Source: Candidatus Onthoplasma faecigallinarum (GTDB lineage Bacteria; Bacillota; Clostridia; Christensenellales; UBA1242). From it: DNA of 45,545 bases. Of this stretch, positions 777 to 11,005 are shown one piece after another. Both the position numbers and the translations under genes were made by a program. The DNA lies in contig DVMB01000044.1 in the NCBI GenBank assembly GCA_018715225.1, positions 1-45,545 on the forward strand, written 5' to 3'. The notes under the pieces are model-generated. The model did not search any database, was not told where the DNA came from, and saw nothing but the letters and a program-made list of their open reading frames with translations. Every line of letters starts with the position of its first letter. Position 1 is the stretch's first letter.

Positions 777-2183
777 CTAATCTGTTATCACATATAAATT
801 TTGATTTCCATATATTTCAAATGTGTAGTTAGTATTATACATACTACCCATGCCATAACTTATTTTAAAATCTCCTGGATTAAAGATATAGCTTCCGTCT
901 TCATTCAAAGTTAAATAACAACTACCTTGAGAGTCGCCTGTATTTCCTTGAACGTTTGAAATTGTTATTTCAGTTCCAAAATTATTTGGATTTAATTCTA
1001 CCGCTTGGCTCTTTCCGTCAGAGCCTACAAAGGTACTATTCCAAATATTTATGTATATAGTAGATTTTGATAGGTCGACAACATAGCCGTTATTTTTAAA
1101 AAATTTTAATAAATTTGTATTAGTACTCGAACCTTCATCAACAATACTTATTGCTCGTGATATATATACTGATTCTAGTCGACCAAATAAGGCATAAAAT
1201 TCTATATCGGCTTCAATTTGCATTGTTGAAACATCTACTATGCTTTCTTTATCTAAAGACCAGCCTAAAAAGTTATAGCCTTCTCGTGTCGGTTCTTCAG
1301 GCTCGTTGGCATAATGACCTGATGATATAAATTTAGTGTCAACAACATCATTTTTAACCAGGAAATTGACTTCGAACGGATTGGCGTCGTATACAGCAGA
1401 TATTATTGTGTCCTGTTCCCCAAAACTGAAAATATTATTACTTATGCTTCCGTCTCCATTGATGATCTCCCAATTTAAAAACGGTTTATTGTCATAATCG
1501 TCAGGTGTAGCCAGTGTATAAGTTTCGCCCTTAACACCAGTTATAACAATATCCTGGGTATTGTTATTTAACTTTATGGTTAGACTTGAAGTACTTTCTT
1601 CAACTGTTCCTAAAACACCACCTATGTCGTATTTTGATTTCGCTAGTGTTATCGTAAAATTGTTTAAACTACAATATTTTTTAAAATAGGGCAATGCTTC
1701 TTTGTCCATGCTTACATTTAGCATGCTTGCTTCTGTGTACATGGCAAAATTAATAGATATTTCGGCTTCACAAATAATGGACTCATCTACATCATAGAAT
1801 GATTTTGTCATCGTTGCAGATATAGTCCCTGCTCTTTGTGATATATTTCCTATCAATTCTTCGTTGACATAAATGACATATTTGTTTTGATTGGCATTAA
1901 AATCTACACTGTCAAATTGATATGTATATGTTGCTTGTTCATCTTCTACGCCAAATGATACATCATTGATATTTTGTGAGAACAAGACATCTTCTTCTGT
2001 CAAATACTCTTTTAGTTCATAAGGTACGTAATCATAGACTTTAATATTTCCAAGCGTATAACTTTCTGGCTTAATATAATTAATATAATAAGCAAAGCAA
2101 AAGCCGAACGCTACGATGATAATTAAGCTAAAAATTACGATCCAAAGTGAAAACTGTTTATCACTATCATATCCTGCTCTCAT
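777..2183 (-). CDS. membrane-anchored protein with Listeria-Bacteroides-type (Flg_new-like) repeats
   Basis: 468-aa ORF with N-terminal TM (LWIVIFSLIIIVAFGFCFAYYI). Two GYxFxGW-type repeat signatures (KPFLNWEII and REGYNFLGWSLD...FYALF). Start overlaps the upstream stop by 4 nt (ATGA). Confidence 0.6.
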   Translation of the reverse strand: MRAGYDSDKQFSLWIVIFSLIIIVAFGFCFAYYINYIKPESYTLGNIKVYDYVPYELKEYLTEEDVLFSQNINDVSFGVEDEQATYTYQFDSVDFNANQNKYVIYVNEELIGNISQRAGTISATMTKSFYDVDESIICEAEISINFAMYTEASMLNVSMDKEALPYFKKYCSLNNFTITLAKSKYDIGGVLGTVEESTSSLTIKLNNNTQDIVITGVKGETYTLATPDDYDNKPFLNWEIINGDGSISNNIFSFGEQDTIISAVYDANPFEVNFLVKNDVVDTKFISSGHYANEPEEPTREGYNFLGWSLDKESIVDVSTMQIEADIEFYALFGRLESVYISRAISIVDEGSSTNTNLLKFFKNNGYVVDLSKSTIYINIWNSTFVGSDGKSQAVELNPNNFGTEITISNVQGNTGDSQGSCYLTLNEDGSYIFNPGDFKISYGMGSMYNTNYTFEIYGNQNLYVITD

Positions 2184-3580: not shown

Positions 3581-4594
3581 TCAACATGAATTTACCCCTA
3601 ATTCTTTTTTATACTTCAGGAACCGTTGCTCTCGCTCGATTCTTTGTTGAGTCTTGAAAACGATATTTGACAACAACTTTGACTCTGGGGTATAAACGTT
3701 CCAGGGGAATCCCTTTCGTACCAACTCATCTGTCTTTTTCCAGGATGTTTTTTTACCTGCCTGCATAATGGCACCCATAATATATGGCGACCTGGTTTTG
3801 ATGTCCACTTTAGTCGTTACTTGAGCGACTATCGATTGGAACTCGCTGTCGGTAATGTTGAGATAAATGTCATTAAGAAGTGATTTGGTGTACTTTTTGC
3901 CGTCAAATATAAACCCACGTTCAGTCTCTGCTTCGTTATAGGCTTCAATCATATTATCGACGACTTCCAAAGCGGAGTTATAAAAATTGCCACTGTCATA
4001 GTAATCAAAATATTCCTTGAACAGCGTATTCGTATAATCTCTTCTATCATTGCCAGAGAACTCACGCACACGTGTAGGTGTACCTGCTCGTTGATAGGTT
4101 CTAAATTTGTTAGTGTTATCATCTTCAAAAGCAGTCTCACGTGCGTGCGTATTTTTATTAATATTAATATTTTTATATTTATAACTAACTAGAACTAGAT
4201 TAATTAAGTTAACTAGTATATTAAGTATAGGGTTGTTGTCTGTGTTATTTTGGACAGATTTGTCTTGATTTTTGACAAATTTGTCAAAAACTGACGCTAA
4301 AATATCCTGATTAGCGTAATCTTCATTTTTTAAATCATCTTTATTGACAACAAAGATTGCTTTTTTGATATTTTTAAAATTTATCAAAGCGATCAAGTTT
4401 GCATTGATAAGTTCCTTTTTATATCTCTCCAAAGTTCGATTGGATACGTTATTTAATTGACTTGAAAAATACATGTCGTCTTTTTGGCATACTCCGTCTT
4501 CAGCGGACTGCAAAATAAGACCGTACATCATCTTTGCACTGTCGCTAATATTTAATTTAGATACATGATCTGGTATGAACAAAAACCCCTCCAC
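3581..4594 (-). CDS. replication initiator-like protein (RepA_N-type N-terminus, DnaD/DnaB_2-like C-terminal region)
   Basis: N-terminus FLFIPDHVSKLNISDSAKMMYGLIL...SNRTLERYKKELINANLI fits the RepA_N pattern (F..IP..L...LS..AK.LY..L ... KEL...LI). C-terminal SPYIMGAIMQAGKK resembles a DnaD-type YI..IL motif. GTG start sits directly after the upstream TAG. The central part is AT-rich and repeat-rich. Confidence 0.55.
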   Translation of the reverse strand: MEGFLFIPDHVSKLNISDSAKMMYGLILQSAEDGVCQKDDMYFSSQLNNVSNRTLERYKKELINANLIALINFKNIKKAIFVVNKDDLKNEDYANQDILASVFDKFVKNQDKSVQNNTDNNPILNILVNLINLVLVSYKYKNININKNTHARETAFEDDNTNKFRTYQRAGTPTRVREFSGNDRRDYTNTLFKEYFDYYDSGNFYNSALEVVDNMIEAYNEAETERGFIFDGKKYTKSLLNDIYLNITDSEFQSIVAQVTTKVDIKTRSPYIMGAIMQAGKKTSWKKTDELVRKGFPWNVYTPESKLLSNIVFKTQQRIEREQRFLKYKKELGVNSC

Positions 4595-4915
4595 CTAATT
4601 TGCTTTTTGTAATTTTTTATAAACATTTGGAGTAACCCAATGTTGAGGCTGATATTTTATCAATGGGAAAAATCCTATTCGTTTGGCTCGAAGAGTCTTC
4701 ATTCTACGGCGAAAAATTATTTCATCATCAAAAAACTCATGTGCCTCACTTGAATTGATTTGGTACTTAAATTCAAATCCCTTTTTCTCAATGTCTTTAA
4801 ATGCTTGCCAAAAGTTAGCTAAACGACATTGATAAGCCTCATCATTTCGAGTCTCTCGAGTACCAATATCAAACTCTAATTTTTCATCGACATTGTAATT
4901 TAATATGTATTTCAT
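4595..4915 (-). CDS. hypothetical protein (106 aa), first gene of the leftward operon
   Basis: Start trimmed to MKYILNYNV at 4915, which has a GGGGGA Shine-Dalgarno. The longer track ORF (to 4960) would run into the structured leader. Confidence 0.55.
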   Translation of the reverse strand: MKYILNYNVDEKLEFDIGTRETRNDEAYQCRLANFWQAFKDIEKKGFEFKYQINSSEAHEFFDDEIIFRRRMKTLRAKRIGFFPLIKYQPQHWVTPNVYKKLQKAN

Positions 4916-4941
4916 CGTTCCCCCTTTTCCCCTTTTAAAAT

Positions 4942-4983
4942 ATGACCCTAGGATTTGCACCCAATTAGACTAAACTCGGTCAT
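4942..4983 (-). ncRNA. candidate tRNA-like minihelix, module A (outer stem + T-arm-like hairpin)
   Basis: Minus strand reads atgacc-gagtttagtctaa-ttggg-tgcaaat-cctag-ggtcat. It has a 6-bp outer stem and a 5-bp inner stem (3 WC + 2 GU) with a 7-nt loop TGCAAAT (canonical T-loop is TTCAAAT). It contains the 22-nt direct repeat 4951..4972. Confidence 0.4.
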
Positions 4984-5062
4984 CATAGAGTGGGCAGAAA
5001 TAGCCCACTTTACCTGTGCACAGGGGTCATGCACAAAAAAGCATTTAGGTGTTTTAACCATT

Positions 5063-5105
5063 GTAGGCATTGGGATTTGCACCCAATTAGACTATCTCTG
5101 CCTAC
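5063..5105 (-). ncRNA. candidate tRNA-like minihelix, module B (acceptor-like stem + T-arm-like hairpin)
   Basis: Minus strand reads gtaggca-gagatagtctaa-ttggg-tgcaaat-cccaa-tgcctac. It has a perfect 7-bp outer stem and a perfect 5-bp inner stem with the 7-nt loop TGCAAAT. The outer stem sequence differs from module A but stays complementary. It contains the 22-nt direct repeat 5073..5094. Confidence 0.45.
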
Positions 5106-5200
5106 ATAAACCAGCAAACGCTGGCGGACTGACAGTCTAAAACGTACGGTCAATCCTTTTTAAAAGTTAACCTTTTTGTTTGTCGAACAGAAGGTTATGT

Positions 5201-5220
5201 AATTCATTTTTAAATGAATT
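5201..5220. promoter_or_regulatory. candidate operator palindrome
   Basis: aattcattt-tt-aaatgaatt has 9-bp perfect inverted arms. It lies immediately downstream of the predicted leftward -10, at or near the TSS, in the divergent control region next to the XRE gene. Confidence 0.45.
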
Positions 5221-5226
5221 ATCATA

Positions 5227-5256
5227 ATTTTAATCTCAAAATGGGAATAAAGTCAA
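5227..5256 (-). promoter_or_regulatory. candidate sigma-A promoter of the leftward operon
   Basis: Minus strand has TTGACT, an 18-nt spacer, then TAAAAT. It would give a ~300-nt leader before the ATG at 4915. Confidence 0.45.
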
Positions 5257-5324
5257 CCGTTTTAACCCCTTTTTGATAAATTTATTAAAAAAATATTCAT
5301 TTTTGGGGAAAATTTTAAATAATG

Positions 5325-5333
5325 TGGTATCAT
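5325..5333 (+). promoter_or_regulatory. candidate extended -10 promoter of the XRE gene
   Basis: TGgTATCAT (TGn + TATCAT) lies ~28 nt upstream of the ATG at 5361. The -35 is poor. Confidence 0.35.
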
Positions 5334-5360
5334 ATCGTTGTCGAACAGGAGGTTTTTTAT

Positions 5361-5672
5361 ATGAAAATTAAAGAATTAAGAACAAAAATGAAATTGTCTC
5401 AAAATGAAATTGCTAAAAAATTAGAGATACCACAAACAACATTTTATAATTATGAAACTGAACGAAATGATCCAAGTATCAAAACATTAATTAAAATGGC
5501 AGATTTTTTTAATGTAAGTATTGATGAGCTCGTAGGTCGAGATACTGATATGTTAAATTTAAAATTTTTAGATGATGACCAAAGCTTGATAATCAAATCT
5601 GTGCTTCGCATGAACAAAGAACAACTCACTTATACTAAAAAATTCGTTCAATCAATGATGACTGACATGTAG
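5361..5672 (+). CDS. XRE-family helix-turn-helix transcriptional regulator (cI-like repressor candidate)
   Basis: MKIKELRTKMKLSQNEIAKKLEIPQTTFYNYETERNDPSIKTLIKMADFFNVSIDELVG is a classic HTH_3/XRE signature. AGGAGG lies 7 nt upstream. The start was trimmed from the track ORF (5322). Confidence 0.85.
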   Translation: MKIKELRTKMKLSQNEIAKKLEIPQTTFYNYETERNDPSIKTLIKMADFFNVSIDELVGRDTDMLNLKFLDDDQSLIIKSVLRMNKEQLTYTKKFVQSMMTDM

Positions 5673-5938
5673 GCGGTGTCGATGAGCGTAATTAATGAAG
5701 TCTTAAGGATAATTGACAACCAATTAGAAAATGAAAAAAAACACACTATGTCATCAACTCGATCATCGAGCAGTTGACAAAGTGTGATGTAGATATCAAA
5801 TCGAATATAGCGTCTTTGTTAGGCAAAAGATGTCGTTTTGAGATGATGAGAAGACCAGACAAGGATAAAGATGTCATAATCGTTCAAGAAATAAATGAAA
5901 AGGAAGTTCCTCAAATGTTATTACAGGAGGAACTAGAA

Positions 5939-6997
5939 ATGAAATATCAAGGAATCACAATTCATAAAAATAAAACTTGCGACACATGGTACACCCGTTA
6001 CCGTGTCGGCGGAAAACAATATTATATCTCTGCAAGGACTCAAAAAGAGTGCCTGGAAAAATTAAAAAAAGCACTATATAATAAAAAACGTGATTATTTT
6101 ATGTCTCAAAAAGAAGAGACGCACAACAAATCGATAACGCTTTTAGATTGGTATCAAAAATGGCTAGAACTTTATAAAATTGGGAAAGTTAAAGAAACCA
6201 CGATAAAAGATTATGAAAAAACTCTAAAATTAATTCACGCCAACATCTTGAATAAAAGGGTTAGAGATATTAAAATAATTGAAGTGTTAGAAAATTTAAA
6301 CAATATTAAAGCGGAACGGCAAAGACAAAAAGCTTATGAATTTTTATACATGATATTTGAAAAAGCTAGAATCAATGATTATGTAGAAAAAAATATTATG
6401 GCAAATATTGATAAGCCAAAGCATAAGAAAAAGAATAGTCAACCGCTAACTAAAGAAGTGGAGCAAAGATTGATAGAAGCTTGCGACAAAGTGTTACATG
6501 GCGACTATTTGTTAGTATGCTTATATCAAGGATTGAGAAAAGGCGAATGTCTAGCAATTACAACAGACGATGTTAATTTTGAAAACAATACTATATCTAT
6601 CAATAAAAGTATCAATGACAGAAATCAATTTGACACTACTAAAAATGAGCAGAGTAATAGAATTATACCTATGTTCGATAGGACAAAACAAATTCTATTA
6701 AGATATAAAGATAAGCAAGGAAGAATCTTTAATTTTGGAAGCAAAATATTACAAAAAGCATTGAGAGAGATAAATACTCGAATTGCCTATCATTTAAAAA
6801 TTAAAGATTTGCGTAGTACCTTTATAACCAGGTGTCAAGAAATGAACATACCAGAGTTTATCATTCAATCATGGGTAGGACATACGATTGGTAGCAAAGT
6901 TACAAAATCTGTTTACACCAAATATAACGCACAAGACAACACTAAATATATAAATATATTTAACAATACAGAATTCTACTCAAATTCTACTCACTAA
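5939..6997 (+). CDS. tyrosine recombinase / phage-type integrase
   Basis: Has an N-terminal SAM-like region (WYQKWLELYK) and a catalytic-domain pattern (GLRKGECLAIT, HTIG, final Y in SVYTKY). It sits 73 nt from the 3' end of tRNA-Glu. ATG at 5939 follows AGGAGG; the track ORF started at an upstream TTG. Confidence 0.85.
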   Translation: MKYQGITIHKNKTCDTWYTRYRVGGKQYYISARTQKECLEKLKKALYNKKRDYFMSQKEETHNKSITLLDWYQKWLELYKIGKVKETTIKDYEKTLKLIHANILNKRVRDIKIIEVLENLNNIKAERQRQKAYEFLYMIFEKARINDYVEKNIMANIDKPKHKKKNSQPLTKEVEQRLIEACDKVLHGDYLLVCLYQGLRKGECLAITTDDVNFENNTISINKSINDRNQFDTTKNEQSNRIIPMFDRTKQILLRYKDKQGRIFNFGSKILQKALREINTRIAYHLKIKDLRSTFITRCQEMNIPEFIIQSWVGHTIGSKVTKSVYTKYNAQDNTKYINIFNNTEFYSNSTH

Positions 6998-7070: not shown

Positions 7071-7145
7071 TGGTAGTCCCAAGGGGAATCGAACCCCTGA
7101 TACCACCGTGAAAGGGTGGTGTCTTAACCGCTTGACCATGGGACC
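7071..7145 (-). tRNA. tRNA-Glu (anticodon UUC)
   Basis: rc reads GGTCCCATGGTCAAGCGGTTAAGACACCACCCTTTCACGGTGGTATCAGGGGTTCGATTCCCCTTGGGACTACCA. It folds as a cloverleaf, the anticodon loop CTTTCAC is colinear with E. coli tRNA-Glu, and CCA is encoded. Confidence 0.9.

Positions 7146-9531: not shown

Positions 9532-11005
<1,474 letters not shown>

Follow-up and report, generated by a model that had tools for sequence, protein, structure and literature searches.

We report here a conserved 43-46-nt RNA element on the mRNA-sense strand of phage transcripts that mimics the top half of a tRNA. A 6-7-bp acceptor-like stem is stacked on a 5-6-bp T-type stem, and a single strand of 9-13 nt on the 5' side stands in for the D arm, the anticodon arm and the variable loop. 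Two copies, modules B and A, lie in the leader of a prophage operon in the window, by which we mean the whole 45,545-nt stretch of DNA that was analysed, and further covarying copies were found in another prophage and in a family of dsDNA tailed phages. The structure is real and under selection. As for its function, the sequences are consistent with a signal for RNase P, possibly also for RNase Z, that would punctuate phage mRNA, a reading to which we give a probability of roughly 0.45. No described RNA family in Rfam 15 matches the element.

The prophage leader

The mobile element recognised in the first-pass annotation can be described more closely as an integrated filamentous (inovirus-like, Zot-encoding) prophage adjoining tRNA-Glu. 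As that annotation had it, the module-bearing block sits between a leftward promoter-like site and the start codon of ORF1 (Table 1), contains the three further hairpins named there, and is richer in G+C than its surroundings, with 44% over the span of the finding against 31% in ORF1 and 21-28% on the promoter/repressor side. The predicted promoter would start a leftward leader transcript near 5220. The direct repeat TTGTCGAACAG is probably a binding site of the Xre-type repressor (5322-5672) and belongs to the context, outside the RNA module. The 106-aa ORF1 protein was assigned to no known family, and the 3' end of module A lies about 15 nt ahead of the ORF1 ribosome-binding site. On the plus strand, an open reading frame at 4955-5140 overlaps the module region. 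ARAGORN calls four tRNA genes in the window, all of which encode CCA, and none at 4942-5105.

Table 1. Features of the prophage leader and the adjoining genes (coordinates of the window).
Feature	Position	Strand	Remarks
Promoter-like site TTGACT, 18 nt, TAAAAT	5256..5227	-	consensus scan, 10/12 matches
Operator-like direct repeat TTGTCGAACAG (family D2)	5180..5190		second copy at 5338-5348
Hairpin GGATTGAC..GTCAGTCC	5156..5126	-	
Hairpin CCAGC-GTTT-GCTGG	5124..5111	-	stem intact in L130 despite a loop substitution
Linker TTTAT	5110..5106	-	5 nt, between CCAGC hairpin and module B; last base U
Module B outer stem	5105..5099 with 5069..5063	-	7 bp
Module B 5' joining strand GAGATAGTCTAA	5098..5087	-	
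Module B inner stem	5086..5082 with 5074..5070	-	5 bp
Module B T-loop TGCAAAT	5081..5075	-	base 3' of the module is A at 5062
Spacer 12-mer CCTAAATGCTTT	5049..5038	-	conserved
Spacer hairpin TGTGCA-TGACCCCTG-TGCACA	5035..5015	-	
Hairpin GTGGGC-TATTTCT-GCCCAC	5008..4990	-	
Linker TCTAT(G)	4989..4984	-	between GTGGGC hairpin and module A
Module A outer stem	4983..4978 with 4947..4942	-	6 bp
Module A joining strand GAGTTTAGTCTAA	4977..4965	-	
Module A inner stem	4964..4960 with 4952..4948	-	5 bp, two of them G·U
Module A T-loop TGCAAAT	4959..4953	-	base 3' of the module is A at 4941
Ribosome-binding site AAGGGGG	about 4926..4920	-	G-rich; ahead of ORF1
ORF1	ATG 4915, to 4595	-	106 aa; first gene of the phage operon
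Replication-initiator-like gene (rep)	4594..3581	-	next after ORF1

Two other loci were compared with the leader. L130, a metagenome locus, has a different repressor and promoter and becomes nearly identical to the window from just before the TGTTCGACAAACA motif onwards. In the more distant prophage L003, whose Rep protein is 42% identical, the spacer 12-mer CCTAAATGCTTT is matched exactly at 955-966 (about 0.02 matches expected by chance), and it is found in L130 too. L003 has a similar spacer hairpin with the loop ACCCCTG and a different stem, and ahead of its last module the hairpin and linker that precede module A have a counterpart in GGGCG-ATTTC-CGCCC followed by ATTAT. The 305-nt leader of the window folds with z = -4.76, and none of 100 shuffled sequences folds as well. 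Its minimum-free-energy fold places GGCAGAGAUAG, the 5' half of module B, in a helix of about 11 bp with CUAUUUCUGCC of the downstream hairpin; we treat this pairing as unproven because it is not evident in L003. The region does not code for protein: L130 lacks the ATG, and a +1 and a -1 indel, separated by about 19 nt, shift its frame locally; across the L003 modules no open reading frame longer than 50 aa was found on either strand.

Architecture of the modules

Read on the minus strand, module B (5105..5063) is GTAGGCA-GAGATAGTCTAA-TTGGG-TGCAAAT-CCCAA-TGCCTAC and module A (4983..4942) is ATGACC-GAGTTTAGTCTAA-TTGGG-TGCAAAT-CCTAG-GGTCAT, in exact agreement with the first-pass annotation, whose counts of paired bases and acceptor/T-arm geometry also hold. 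All seven pairs of the outer stem of module B are Watson-Crick and its inner stem is complete (5/5); module A pairs at 6/6 outer positions and reaches 5/5 in the inner stem only when two G·U pairs are counted. The 22-nt core TAGTCTAATTGGGTGCAAATCC, noted earlier as identical in both modules, occurs exactly twice in the window, at 4951-4972 and 5073-5094 with a spacing of 122 bp; only about 0.01 chance matches are expected, even with three mismatches allowed. The outer stems of the two modules are unlike in sequence and are paired in both. The minimum-free-energy fold of module B is the proposed structure (z = -3.4), and that of module A keeps the outer stem and pairs the inner part otherwise. 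Folding z-scores of single modules are modest throughout, from -0.5 to -3.4.

Together the two stems come to about 12 bp (7+5 bp for the copies from prophages, with 6+5 in module A, and 6+6 bp for those from tailed phages), and the closing pair of the inner stem is G-C in 12/12 copies. Across both phage lineages the joining strand keeps an invariant A-G dinucleotide and an invariant A. The loops read UGCAAAU, UGCAAUU, UGCAACU or UGCGACU, so that position 2 is G in all 13 copies (UGCRA), compared with U54-U55-C56-R57-A58 in canonical tRNA. TGCAAAT had been taken for a near-canonical T-loop. It is indeed a loop of T type, but to call it a defective tRNA loop would be mistaken: UGCRA-NU matches the standard consensus of T-loops outside tRNA, (YGNRA)NY, within which UGNRA accounts for 88.7% (bioRxiv 10.1101/2022.12.26.521914). 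We infer from the invariant columns that the joining-strand A-G is a candidate intercalation partner between loop positions 4 and 5. A vestigial D arm in the form of a 3-bp mini-hairpin in the joining strand was considered and rejected, being present in some copies only.

The flanks of the modules are conserved as well. The base at -1 is U in 12/13 copies, and the base at +1 is G in all five prophage copies. The 3' tail reads N-CC in seven of the eight tailed-phage copies and N-CCA in four, whereas N-CC follows only one of the five prophage copies and none of these carries a 3' CCA. Among the four host tRNA genes of the window, three have U at -1 and two share with the modules the junction ...UAU|G. 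Conservation of the flanks (U at -1, CC) may be partly inherited rather than selected. Both modules of the window follow a hairpin and a 3-10-nt linker, as do all eight copies from tailed phages and at least two of the three copies modelled in L003. These hairpins are not simply terminators, because several lack a U-run. One module is always found 10-20 nt ahead of a ribosome-binding site.

Covariation and distribution

The first-pass annotation had argued from the two window modules that the outer stems covary under selection. Two copies are insufficient for this, and it is the homologous copies that lift the structure above chance: ten further distinct copies from other phages agree, as does the variant L153. 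L003 contains three further modules (the first modelled copy at 802-844) with the same loop and different, still-pairing stems. A fourth hairpin of L003 (586-622) has the same layout with the loop UCGAA; it was missed by the models, and we rejected it as not being a T-loop copy. In a family of dsDNA tailed phages, retrieved through homology of the downstream protein and not through the RNA, eight sequence variants have the same architecture in the gap that separates the major-capsid gene from the gene after it. These phages have genes for portal, minor capsid and capsid proteins and for a protein of tape-measure size. Each tailed-phage contig examined carries one module (from a full-model scan for three contigs), which does not make a general punctuation system, and L150, a close relative, has none; thus, the module is dispensable.

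Pairing was counted over 12 copies, namely the two window modules and the ten further ones, with L153 left out. Of the 151 pair cells, 96.0% are standard pairs, compared with 29-46% when partners are slid as a control, and changes on both sides are seen at 11 of the 13 pairs. None of 500 shuffles reached the observed value on four of five measures; on the fifth, the number of pairs with changes on both sides, four shuffles did so. The tailed-phage copies on their own are 97.8% paired, with compensatory changes at 7/13 pairs. On the sense strand 96% of cells pair, compared with 86% had the antisense strand been read, and G·U makes up 15/151 cells. Both the G·U pairs and the fact that the modules of dsDNA phages are sense-oriented speak for RNA, and not single-stranded (ss) DNA, as the form in which the module acts.

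Covariance models, as proposed in the first-pass annotation, were built as well. Module B scores 47.3 bits with model R1 and 39 bits with R3, and module A 48.6 and 38.8 bits, both modules being among the training copies of both models. With a model made from tailed-phage copies only, module B was the top match at a modest E of 0.023, and in module A the T-arm alone was found. The set remains small, with 13 variants from two phage lineages.

The earlier statement that no described motif matches the modules agrees with Rfam 15, where at the gathering score only the four tRNAs match in the window, and where none of the four scanned loci from tailed phages has a match that overlaps its module. With E up to 10, the only weak match is the tymovirus tRNA-like element RF00233 (E = 3), to which the module does not belong, at 13.7 bits against a cut-off of 40; the tRNA model RF00005 has no match in 4800-5400, even at E up to 10. 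ARAGORN reports no tRNA in L001-L003. Among 50,697 phage records, BLAST of the leader and tblastn of the Rep and L127 proteins returned nothing, and the L127 intergenic region gave chance 19-22-mers only. The exact 22-mer and the looser pattern TAGTCTANNNNGGTGCAAATCC have no matches in IMG/VR. In species-representative genomes there was a single match, which lies within a coding region of a Dojkabacteria MAG and was judged to be chance. Of eight loci from a metagenome scan, L130 and L127 are true modules; L128 and the one repeated sequence represented by L125, L126, L129, L131 and L132 were rejected for want of an outer stem. An IMG/VR search for two GTGCAAATC loops 60-90 nt apart gave noise, namely pentapeptide-repeat genes, a few real tRNAs and repeats in phage contigs of about 110-120 kb, which we take to be T5-like. 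Later IMG/VR patterns added one true copy, L153, and the unrelated T-loop hairpins L157 and L158. Relatives of Rep form three clusters and those of ORF1 one cluster among 5.8 billion proteins; neither has relatives in IMG/VR.

Proposed function and alternatives

Among the roles suggested at the outset, RNase P/Z processing and tRNA mimicry seem, on the sequences, the best readings that remain. If the modules are processing signals, the joining-strand A-G would dock on the T-loop as the D-loop G18-G19 does in tRNA, its A intercalating and its G pairing with the invariant loop C, so as to form a miniature tRNA elbow. The tRNA-processing machinery of the host would then take the module for a pre-tRNA. 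The cut by RNase P would fall between the conserved U and the first base of the outer stem, and RNase Z might additionally cut after the 3' A in the prophage copies that lack CCA. Such a cut would part the upstream RNA, ending in the hairpin that precedes most modules, from a downstream mRNA whose new 5' end is a stable helix, 10-20 nt short of the ribosome-binding site. For the window this would mean a 5' end of the mature ORF1/rep mRNA near 4984/4983 and the release of an RNA of about 120 nt that comprises module B and the spacer. The outcome would be differential stability and expression of the flanking genes, a phage form of tRNA punctuation. There is precedent in that RNase P cleaves non-tRNA phage and operon RNAs, and that plant mitochondria use tRNA-like structures, the t-elements, for mRNA ends (Forner et al. 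2007, PMC1920247). Also in favour of processing are the tRNA-like dimensions and loop of the modules, the U at -1, the N-CC tails in tailed phages and the placing of most copies behind a hairpin and of one ahead of a ribosome-binding site. Counting against processing are the prophage copies without a 3' CCA, module A, which offers only 6+5 bp and a G/A mismatch, and the last L003 copy, which has only three good inner-stem pairs.

The modules might instead be read uncut, as a cis-regulatory operator or aptamer that recognises a small ligand or a protein of either phage or host, such as the ORF1 product or one that binds tRNA, with binding setting the translation or stability of the downstream gene and tandem copies giving cooperativity. 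We consider this rather unlikely. It would suit the unpaired A-G and A and the loop UGC-A-U, which are invariant in two lineages and look like a typical binding surface, the copy that always lies just 5' of a ribosome-binding site, and the tandem arrangement in prophages; in the Ff phages, translation of gene II is controlled by a protein bound to the leader. However, the proteins encoded downstream are unrelated in the prophage and the tailed phages (no similarity by blastp), making a shared phage-encoded partner unlikely, no conserved alternative pairing hides the ribosome-binding site, and the 12-bp stack, the U at -1 and the N-CC tail are left unexplained. The Shine-Dalgarno/anti-Shine-Dalgarno look of the tailed-phage outer stem, which we rejected, is lost in L134. 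With lower odds again, the module could be excised by RNase P and RNase Z or exonucleases as a free RNA of about 45 nt, its CCA end given or kept, that serves as a decoy or sponge for host factors or immune nucleases reading the acceptor/T half, or that hijacks tRNA-binding enzymes. The module keeps the tRNA parts that are read by RNase P, RNase Z, the CCA-adding enzyme and EF-Tu. N-CCA or N-CC tails are encoded in the tailed-phage copies, two to four copies per prophage leader would raise the dose, and plant t-elements build up as stable RNAs with added C or CA (PMC1920247). The constant place behind a hairpin and beside a ribosome-binding site, however, is easier to square with a role in cis; A76 varies between copies (CCA, CCU, CCG, CUA), the G3:U70 alanine identity pair occurs in 0/5 prophage copies, and no defence or anti-defence genes were seen nearby. 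The fuller version of this proposal, in which phages of uncultured low-G+C Gram-positives make mimics of about 45 nt from acceptor stem, T-arm and a two-base D-loop surrogate, which are excised, CCA-finished and act in trans as decoys, the cut in the mRNA being a by-product, is slightly less probable still. The targets of such decoys might be, for example, tRNA-directed immune nucleases or nucleotidyltransferase toxins.

A processive antiterminator of the put/EAR type, i.e. an RNA in the early transcript that acts on RNA polymerase so that it reads through downstream terminators, would be expected close to the promoter and inside long phage operons, as a structured two-stem RNA with conserved unpaired bases, and in the prophage early leader the modules do answer this description. 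In the tailed phages, however, the module lies downstream and not upstream of the nearest terminator-like hairpin; there is no resemblance to put or EAR and no Rfam match, and the tRNA-like dimensions would go unexplained, and we think such a role very improbable. A replication or transfer structure in ssDNA, also suggested earlier, could act on the packaged strand of the filamentous phage as a minus-strand origin, as a site for priming or as a signal for packaging. The Zot-encoding host element and the noncoding position directly upstream of replication genes, which is where the Ff intergenic region lies, speak for it, and if the packaged strand is mRNA-sense, as it is in Ff, strand asymmetry cannot tell RNA from ssDNA. 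What disfavours it, to the point that we regard it as highly unlikely, is that the architecture is conserved with covariation, in sense orientation, within the late operon of tailed phages, dsDNA viruses that lack an ssDNA stage; in addition, G·T would make up 10% of cells and is poorly tolerated in DNA stems, and the T-loop consensus describes an RNA tertiary motif. That the copies are protein-binding repeats in dsDNA, such as iterons or operators, or that they are remnants, without function, of an attachment site or a tRNA gene, is scarcely credible. Such readings might be drawn from the exact 22-mer at both window copies, 122 bp apart, and from the integration of the prophage beside tRNA genes. 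Yet L003 and the tailed phages keep the pairing while the stem sequences differ, the opposite of what binding sites predict, and the modules lie about 2 kb from the attachment end, have a T-arm unlike that of the adjacent tRNA-Glu (GGGGTTCGATTCCCC) and are called neither by ARAGORN nor by the Rfam tRNA model.

Should RNase P/Z indeed cut the modules, bacterial viruses would punctuate polycistronic mRNAs with miniature tRNA look-alikes, a practice documented so far in organelles and a few eukaryotic long RNAs. A T-loop and an A-G dinucleotide would then make the smallest natural mimic of the tRNA elbow. Synthetic biology in Gram-positives would gain a processing tag that is compact and portable, and studies of how the acceptor/T stack is measured by RNase P, RNase Z and the CCA-adding enzyme would gain a clean substrate from nature. 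The module itself is a covariation-supported family to be added to the RNA motifs of phages; it comes from filamentous and tailed phages, little sampled so far, of uncultured low-G+C Gram-positives.

Relation to known systems

A comparable arrangement is known from eukaryotic nuclei, where in mascRNA/MALAT1 a tRNA-like fold stands 3' of a protective structure and the RNase P cut stabilises the upstream 3' end and frees a small RNA; there the fold is a full, cloverleaf-like one and a triple helix takes the place of the simple upstream hairpin. For the proposed mode of action, the plant mitochondrial t-elements would be the closest match. They are non-decoding tRNA-like folds with a conserved T-arm within mRNA precursors, for which RNase P and RNase Z cuts making mRNA 5' and 3' ends have been proposed and partly shown, and some stem-loops resembling an acceptor stem suffice (Forner et al. 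2007, PMC1920247). However, t-elements are organellar and are non-canonical cloverleaves derived from tRNA genes, whereas the modules belong to phages and have no D or anticodon arm; the T-arm motif is GGTTCRANYCC in the former, which were discovered by means of it, and GGTGCRANTCC in the latter, with G for U at loop position 2. The module may therefore work like a t-element while standing outside that family, and common descent is not implied.

The tymovirus tRNA-like structure, which is a known RNase P substrate, has a T-arm (GGGG-UGCAACU-CCCC) with the same loop as several phage copies. It mimics the acceptor/T region of tRNA at the 3' end of an RNA-virus genome, with a pseudoknotted acceptor arm and an anticodon-like arm, and is aminoacylated, whereas the modules are internal to mRNA. 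The non-tRNA substrates of RNase P, such as the C4 antisense RNA of P1/P7, the M3 RNA of phi80, T4 gene 32 mRNA and operon mRNAs, come from Gram-negative systems and share no common sequence or motif, and none has been described as a leader-repeated T-loop minihelix. In FMN and cobalamin riboswitches the 7-nt T-loop follows (YGNRA)NY, mostly as UGNAA-NU, and takes an intercalating adenosine from a receptor strand (bioRxiv 10.1101/2022.12.26.521914). That receptor is a distant one in a large aptamer, whereas in the module it would be its own 5' joining strand (A-G), with an acceptor-like helix below. Compared with canonical tRNA, the module lacks the D arm, anticodon arm and variable loop and has G for U at position 55. 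It shares the 7-bp acceptor stem, the 5-bp T stem, the 7-nt loop, the G-C closing pair (G53-C61 in tRNA), the R at loop position 4, the A at position 5 and the U before the 5' end. The loop TGCAAAT even turns up in some of the phage tRNAs predicted in IMG/VR.

The modules in their prophage leader

The mobile element is a prophage of the filamentous (inovirus-like) type, roughly 12 kb long and integrated beside a tRNA-Glu gene; it was identified as such by a gene content that includes a Zot (PF05707) assembly ATPase. The prophage runs past the left window edge, and its remainder, which encodes Zot, was seen in two near-identical contigs (L001 and L133). By inferred taxonomy, the host is a low-G+C Gram-positive bacterium, presumably an anaerobic one as it encodes a pyruvate formate-lyase. 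Zot is only 27% identical to that of the nearest deposited phage, and a set of 5.8 billion proteins contains hardly any relatives of Rep and ORF1, with only three clusters for Rep.

Reading the minus strand from 4700 to 5500 and locating the strings by script reproduced both module sequences of the first-pass annotation letter for letter. At 4951-4972 and 5073-5094 the 22-nt core, which it had described as identical, stands as an exact direct repeat, the sole match in the window even with three mismatches (0.01 expected). The block is also richer in G+C than its surroundings, as had been noted (44% versus 21-31% in the neighbouring stretches), and the 305-nt leader folds with z = -4.76.

Features of the prophage leader and its flanks, and modules of the related prophage L003
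Feature	Position	Strand	Description
Module B	5105..5063	minus	GTAGGCA / GAGATAGTCTAA / TTGGG / TGCAAAT / CCCAA / TGCCTAC
Module A	4983..4942	minus	ATGACC / GAGTTTAGTCTAA / TTGGG / TGCAAAT / CCTAG / GGTCAT
Hairpin before module B		minus	CCAGC-GTTT-GCTGG, then linker TTTAT
Hairpin before module A		minus	GTGGGC-TATTTCT-GCCCAC, then linker TCTAT(G)
Sigma-70-like site	5256..5227	minus	
ORF1 start	ATG 4915	minus	
ORF1	left of modules		106 aa, no known family
Rep (replication-initiator-like)	left of modules		337 aa, matches phrog_270, a phage replication-initiator family
Membrane protein, then large membrane proteins	left of modules		58 aa (first protein)
Xre-type repressor	5322-5672		right of modules
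Tyrosine integrase	5774-6997		right of modules
tRNA-Glu	7071-7145		right of modules
L003 modules	802-844, 881-925, 1004-1048		three copies

When the leader is folded to minimum free energy, GGCAGAGAUAG (5087-5103), the 5' half of module B, pairs with CUAUUUCUGCC (4994-5004, minus strand), which lies within the hairpin ahead of module A. By reading of the fold, this comprises about 11 bp with one G·U, and it may represent a possible alternative conformation of the leader; a pairing of this type was not evident in L003.

Copies in a second prophage and in tailed phages

L003, whose Rep is 42% identical, holds three modules in a 530-nt non-coding stretch between a small gene and its ORF1 homologue. 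All three share the loop TGCAAAT and the same type of joining strand, and their stems are quite different but still pair. An exact 12-mer, CCTAAATGCTTT, occupies the spacer between the last two modules of both prophages despite their distant Reps (window 5038-5049, minus strand; L003 955-966; approximately 0.02 expected by chance). At 586-622 of L003, a hairpin with a module-like layout (6-bp outer stem, 10-nt 5' strand, inner hairpin) and the loop UCGAA is possibly a fourth, degenerate copy; it went undetected by the covariance models.

A search pattern of joining strand and T-arm had no match in IMG/VR, and its single match in species-representative genomes was judged to be due to chance. 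In JGI metagenomes it found one module (L127), which has a terminator-like hairpin on one side and, on the other, the ribosome-binding site of a gene for a 116-aa protein. An outer stem is present there (7 bp with one G·U) even though it was absent from the pattern. Further contigs were fetched through homologues of this protein (56-100% identity), with no reference to the RNA. All were tailed-phage morphogenesis operons in the order portal, minor capsid protein, scaffold, major capsid, an intergenic region of about 100 nt, a gene for 112-116 aa, and tail and tape-measure-sized genes, the portal being about 28% identical to Clostridium phage portals. R1, the covariance model of the modules, matched in that intergenic region in every contig except L150, and a pattern scan of IMG/VR added an eighth tailed-phage variant, L153. 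In L150, a close relative, the capsid-gene hairpin is directly followed by the ribosome-binding site (962-1022) and the module is absent, so the module is an optional insert or cassette.

Selection on the structure

The first-pass annotation had proposed that the outer stems differ in sequence yet pair, and that this covariation reflects a selected structure; both points are borne out by the homologous copies in L003 and the tailed phages. When six modules were aligned by hand, 94% of cells were paired and 11 of 12 pairs showed compensatory changes. With 12 distinct copies in an alignment whose stems are free of gaps, 96.0% of 151 cells were standard pairs, and in 11 of 13 pairs both sides changed. 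None of 500 shuffles reached the observed value on four of five measures; on the fifth, the number of pairs with changes at both positions, four shuffles did so. Sliding the 3' partner by 1-3 columns left only 29-46% paired. The tailed-phage copies alone, which were chosen via the protein, were 97.8% paired with compensatory changes in 7 of 13 pairs. For 11 of 13 copies the minimum free energy fold gave the two-stem architecture; z-scores of single modules were modest. A covariance model built from the tailed-phage copies only recovered module B as its top match in 51.5 kb (E = 0.023), but of module A it found the T-arm only. An unfiltered search with the 12-copy model returned no further copies in the window, L001 and three tailed-phage contigs. 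The set is a small one, its 13 variants being all metagenomic and drawn from two phage lineages. We consider it highly probable (about 0.9) that the module is a selected RNA mimic of the top half of tRNA.

Anatomy of the module

G-UGC-A-U-C is invariant in the hairpin; in the joining strand, an A-G dinucleotide and one more A are invariant too. The loop variants (UGCAA-AU, UGCAA-UU, UGCAA-CU and UGCGA-CU) all begin with U-G-C-R-A and end with N-U, fitting the consensus of non-tRNA T-loops, (YGNRA)NY (bioRxiv 10.1101/2022.12.26.521914). They keep the tRNA rules of R57, A58, a variable position 59 and a G53-C61 closing pair. The loop C is invariant in the module, whereas the general T-loop consensus allows any base there. 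We infer that the joining-strand A-G would act as G18-G19 of tRNA, with the A intercalating into the T-loop and the G pairing with the loop C.

Outer and inner stems are 7 and 5 bp in the prophage copies (6 and 5 in module A) and 6 and 6 bp in the tailed phages, and the usual total of 12 bp is that of the stacked acceptor and T stems in tRNA. The flanks look tRNA-like as well: a U precedes the stem in 12 of 13 copies. All five prophage copies start the stem with G and are followed by A. In the tailed phages, the 6-bp outer stem continues as ACCA (three times), ACCU (twice), UCCA, ACCG or GCUA. The window's four host tRNA genes all encode CCA; three of them have U at -1, two of these with the ...UAU|G junction of the modules.

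Upstream of most modules, including the second and third copies of L003, lie a stable hairpin and a 3-10 nt linker that ends in U or C; the first L003 copy (802-844) is a doubtful case. In the tailed phages this hairpin is the one after the capsid stop codon, with a U-run following it in three variants and absent in five. In every case, one of the modules ends 10-20 nt ahead of a ribosome-binding site.

Possible functions

The most economical reading, which we hold tentatively and at slightly under even odds, is a processing signal cut by RNase P, because the features kept are those of tRNA end processing (a putative elbow, the 12-bp stack, U at -1 and, in most tailed-phage copies, C74-C75); the decoding features are absent. 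Cleavage by RNase P would fall at the module's 5' edge; upstream, the RNA would be trimmed as far as its hairpin, and downstream, the mRNA would begin with a helix close to the ribosome-binding site. A 5' structure of this type should give protection from 5'-exonucleases in Gram-positive bacteria. The prophage copies, which lack CCA and continue with A-UUU, could also be RNase Z sites. Precedents exist: known RNase P substrates include the phage C4 and M3 RNAs, the TYMV tRNA-like structure, operon mRNAs and T4 gene 32 mRNA, and plant mitochondrial t-elements are proposed, and in part shown, to make mRNA ends via tRNA-like processing (Forner et al. 2007, PMC1920247).

An uncut regulator bound by a protein or ligand seems rather unlikely, and release of the module as a decoy RNA is improbable. 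An antiterminator directed at RNA polymerase is very improbable. The prophage sense strand could be either mRNA or packaged ssDNA, but a sense-strand structure within the operon of a dsDNA tailed phage can only be RNA, which makes an ssDNA origin or packaging structure a remote prospect. G·U occurs in 15 of the 151 pair cells, so the antisense strand would pair clearly worse (86% versus 96%). DNA repeats or tRNA relics are the least probable explanation. A coding reading was also rejected: L130, a prophage relative, is without the only ATG and two indels shift its frame locally, and no ORF of more than 50 aa crosses the modules of L003.

Relation to known elements

Neither ARAGORN nor Rfam called anything at the modules, their matches in the window being four ordinary tRNAs. 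When E was allowed up to 10, the one related Rfam match was the tymovirus tRNA-like element (13.7 bits), whose T-arm GGGG-UGCAACU-CCCC aligns to module B. The statement that no described motif matches holds for Rfam families, and among the papers that full-text searches turned up none reports a T-loop minihelix of this type from a phage; as a concept, the tRNA-like processing element is already known from organelles and eukaryotic long RNAs.

Apparent tRNA gene 3' ends at four IMG/VR loci (L041, L070, L071, L080) have TGCAAAT as their T-loop, position 55 being G, so the variant loop also occurs in seemingly complete phage tRNAs. T-loop hairpins in two further contigs (L157 995-1030, loop TGCGATT; L158 6124-6160, loop TGCAACT) were rejected as modules, having long simple stems and lacking a 5' joining strand; of the two, one is intergenic and the other falls within a gene. 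Dense intergenic arrays of TGTGCAAATCCGAC, unrelated to the module, occur in IMG/VR contigs of about 110-120 kb that read as T5-like (L007, L008, L015, L027, L034 and others).

Other features of the locus

An operator-like repeat, TTGTCGAACAG, flanks the divergent promoter region (5180-5190 and 5338-5348). The repressor gene and promoter of L130 are wholly different, whilst its leader becomes nearly the same shortly ahead of the operator-like TGTTCGACAAACA motif and stays so from there on, with few substitutions and with its hairpins still paired. Because the leader is the same from TTGTCGAACAG onwards, comparison of the two sequences suggests that immunity modules may be swapped at the TTGTCGAACAG boundary. 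Elsewhere in the window, a gene at 9575-11005 (52% G+C; window 36%) encodes a collagen-like (Scl/Lcl-type) adhesin, and four leucine-rich-repeat adhesin paralogues lie at 33.8-45.4 kb.
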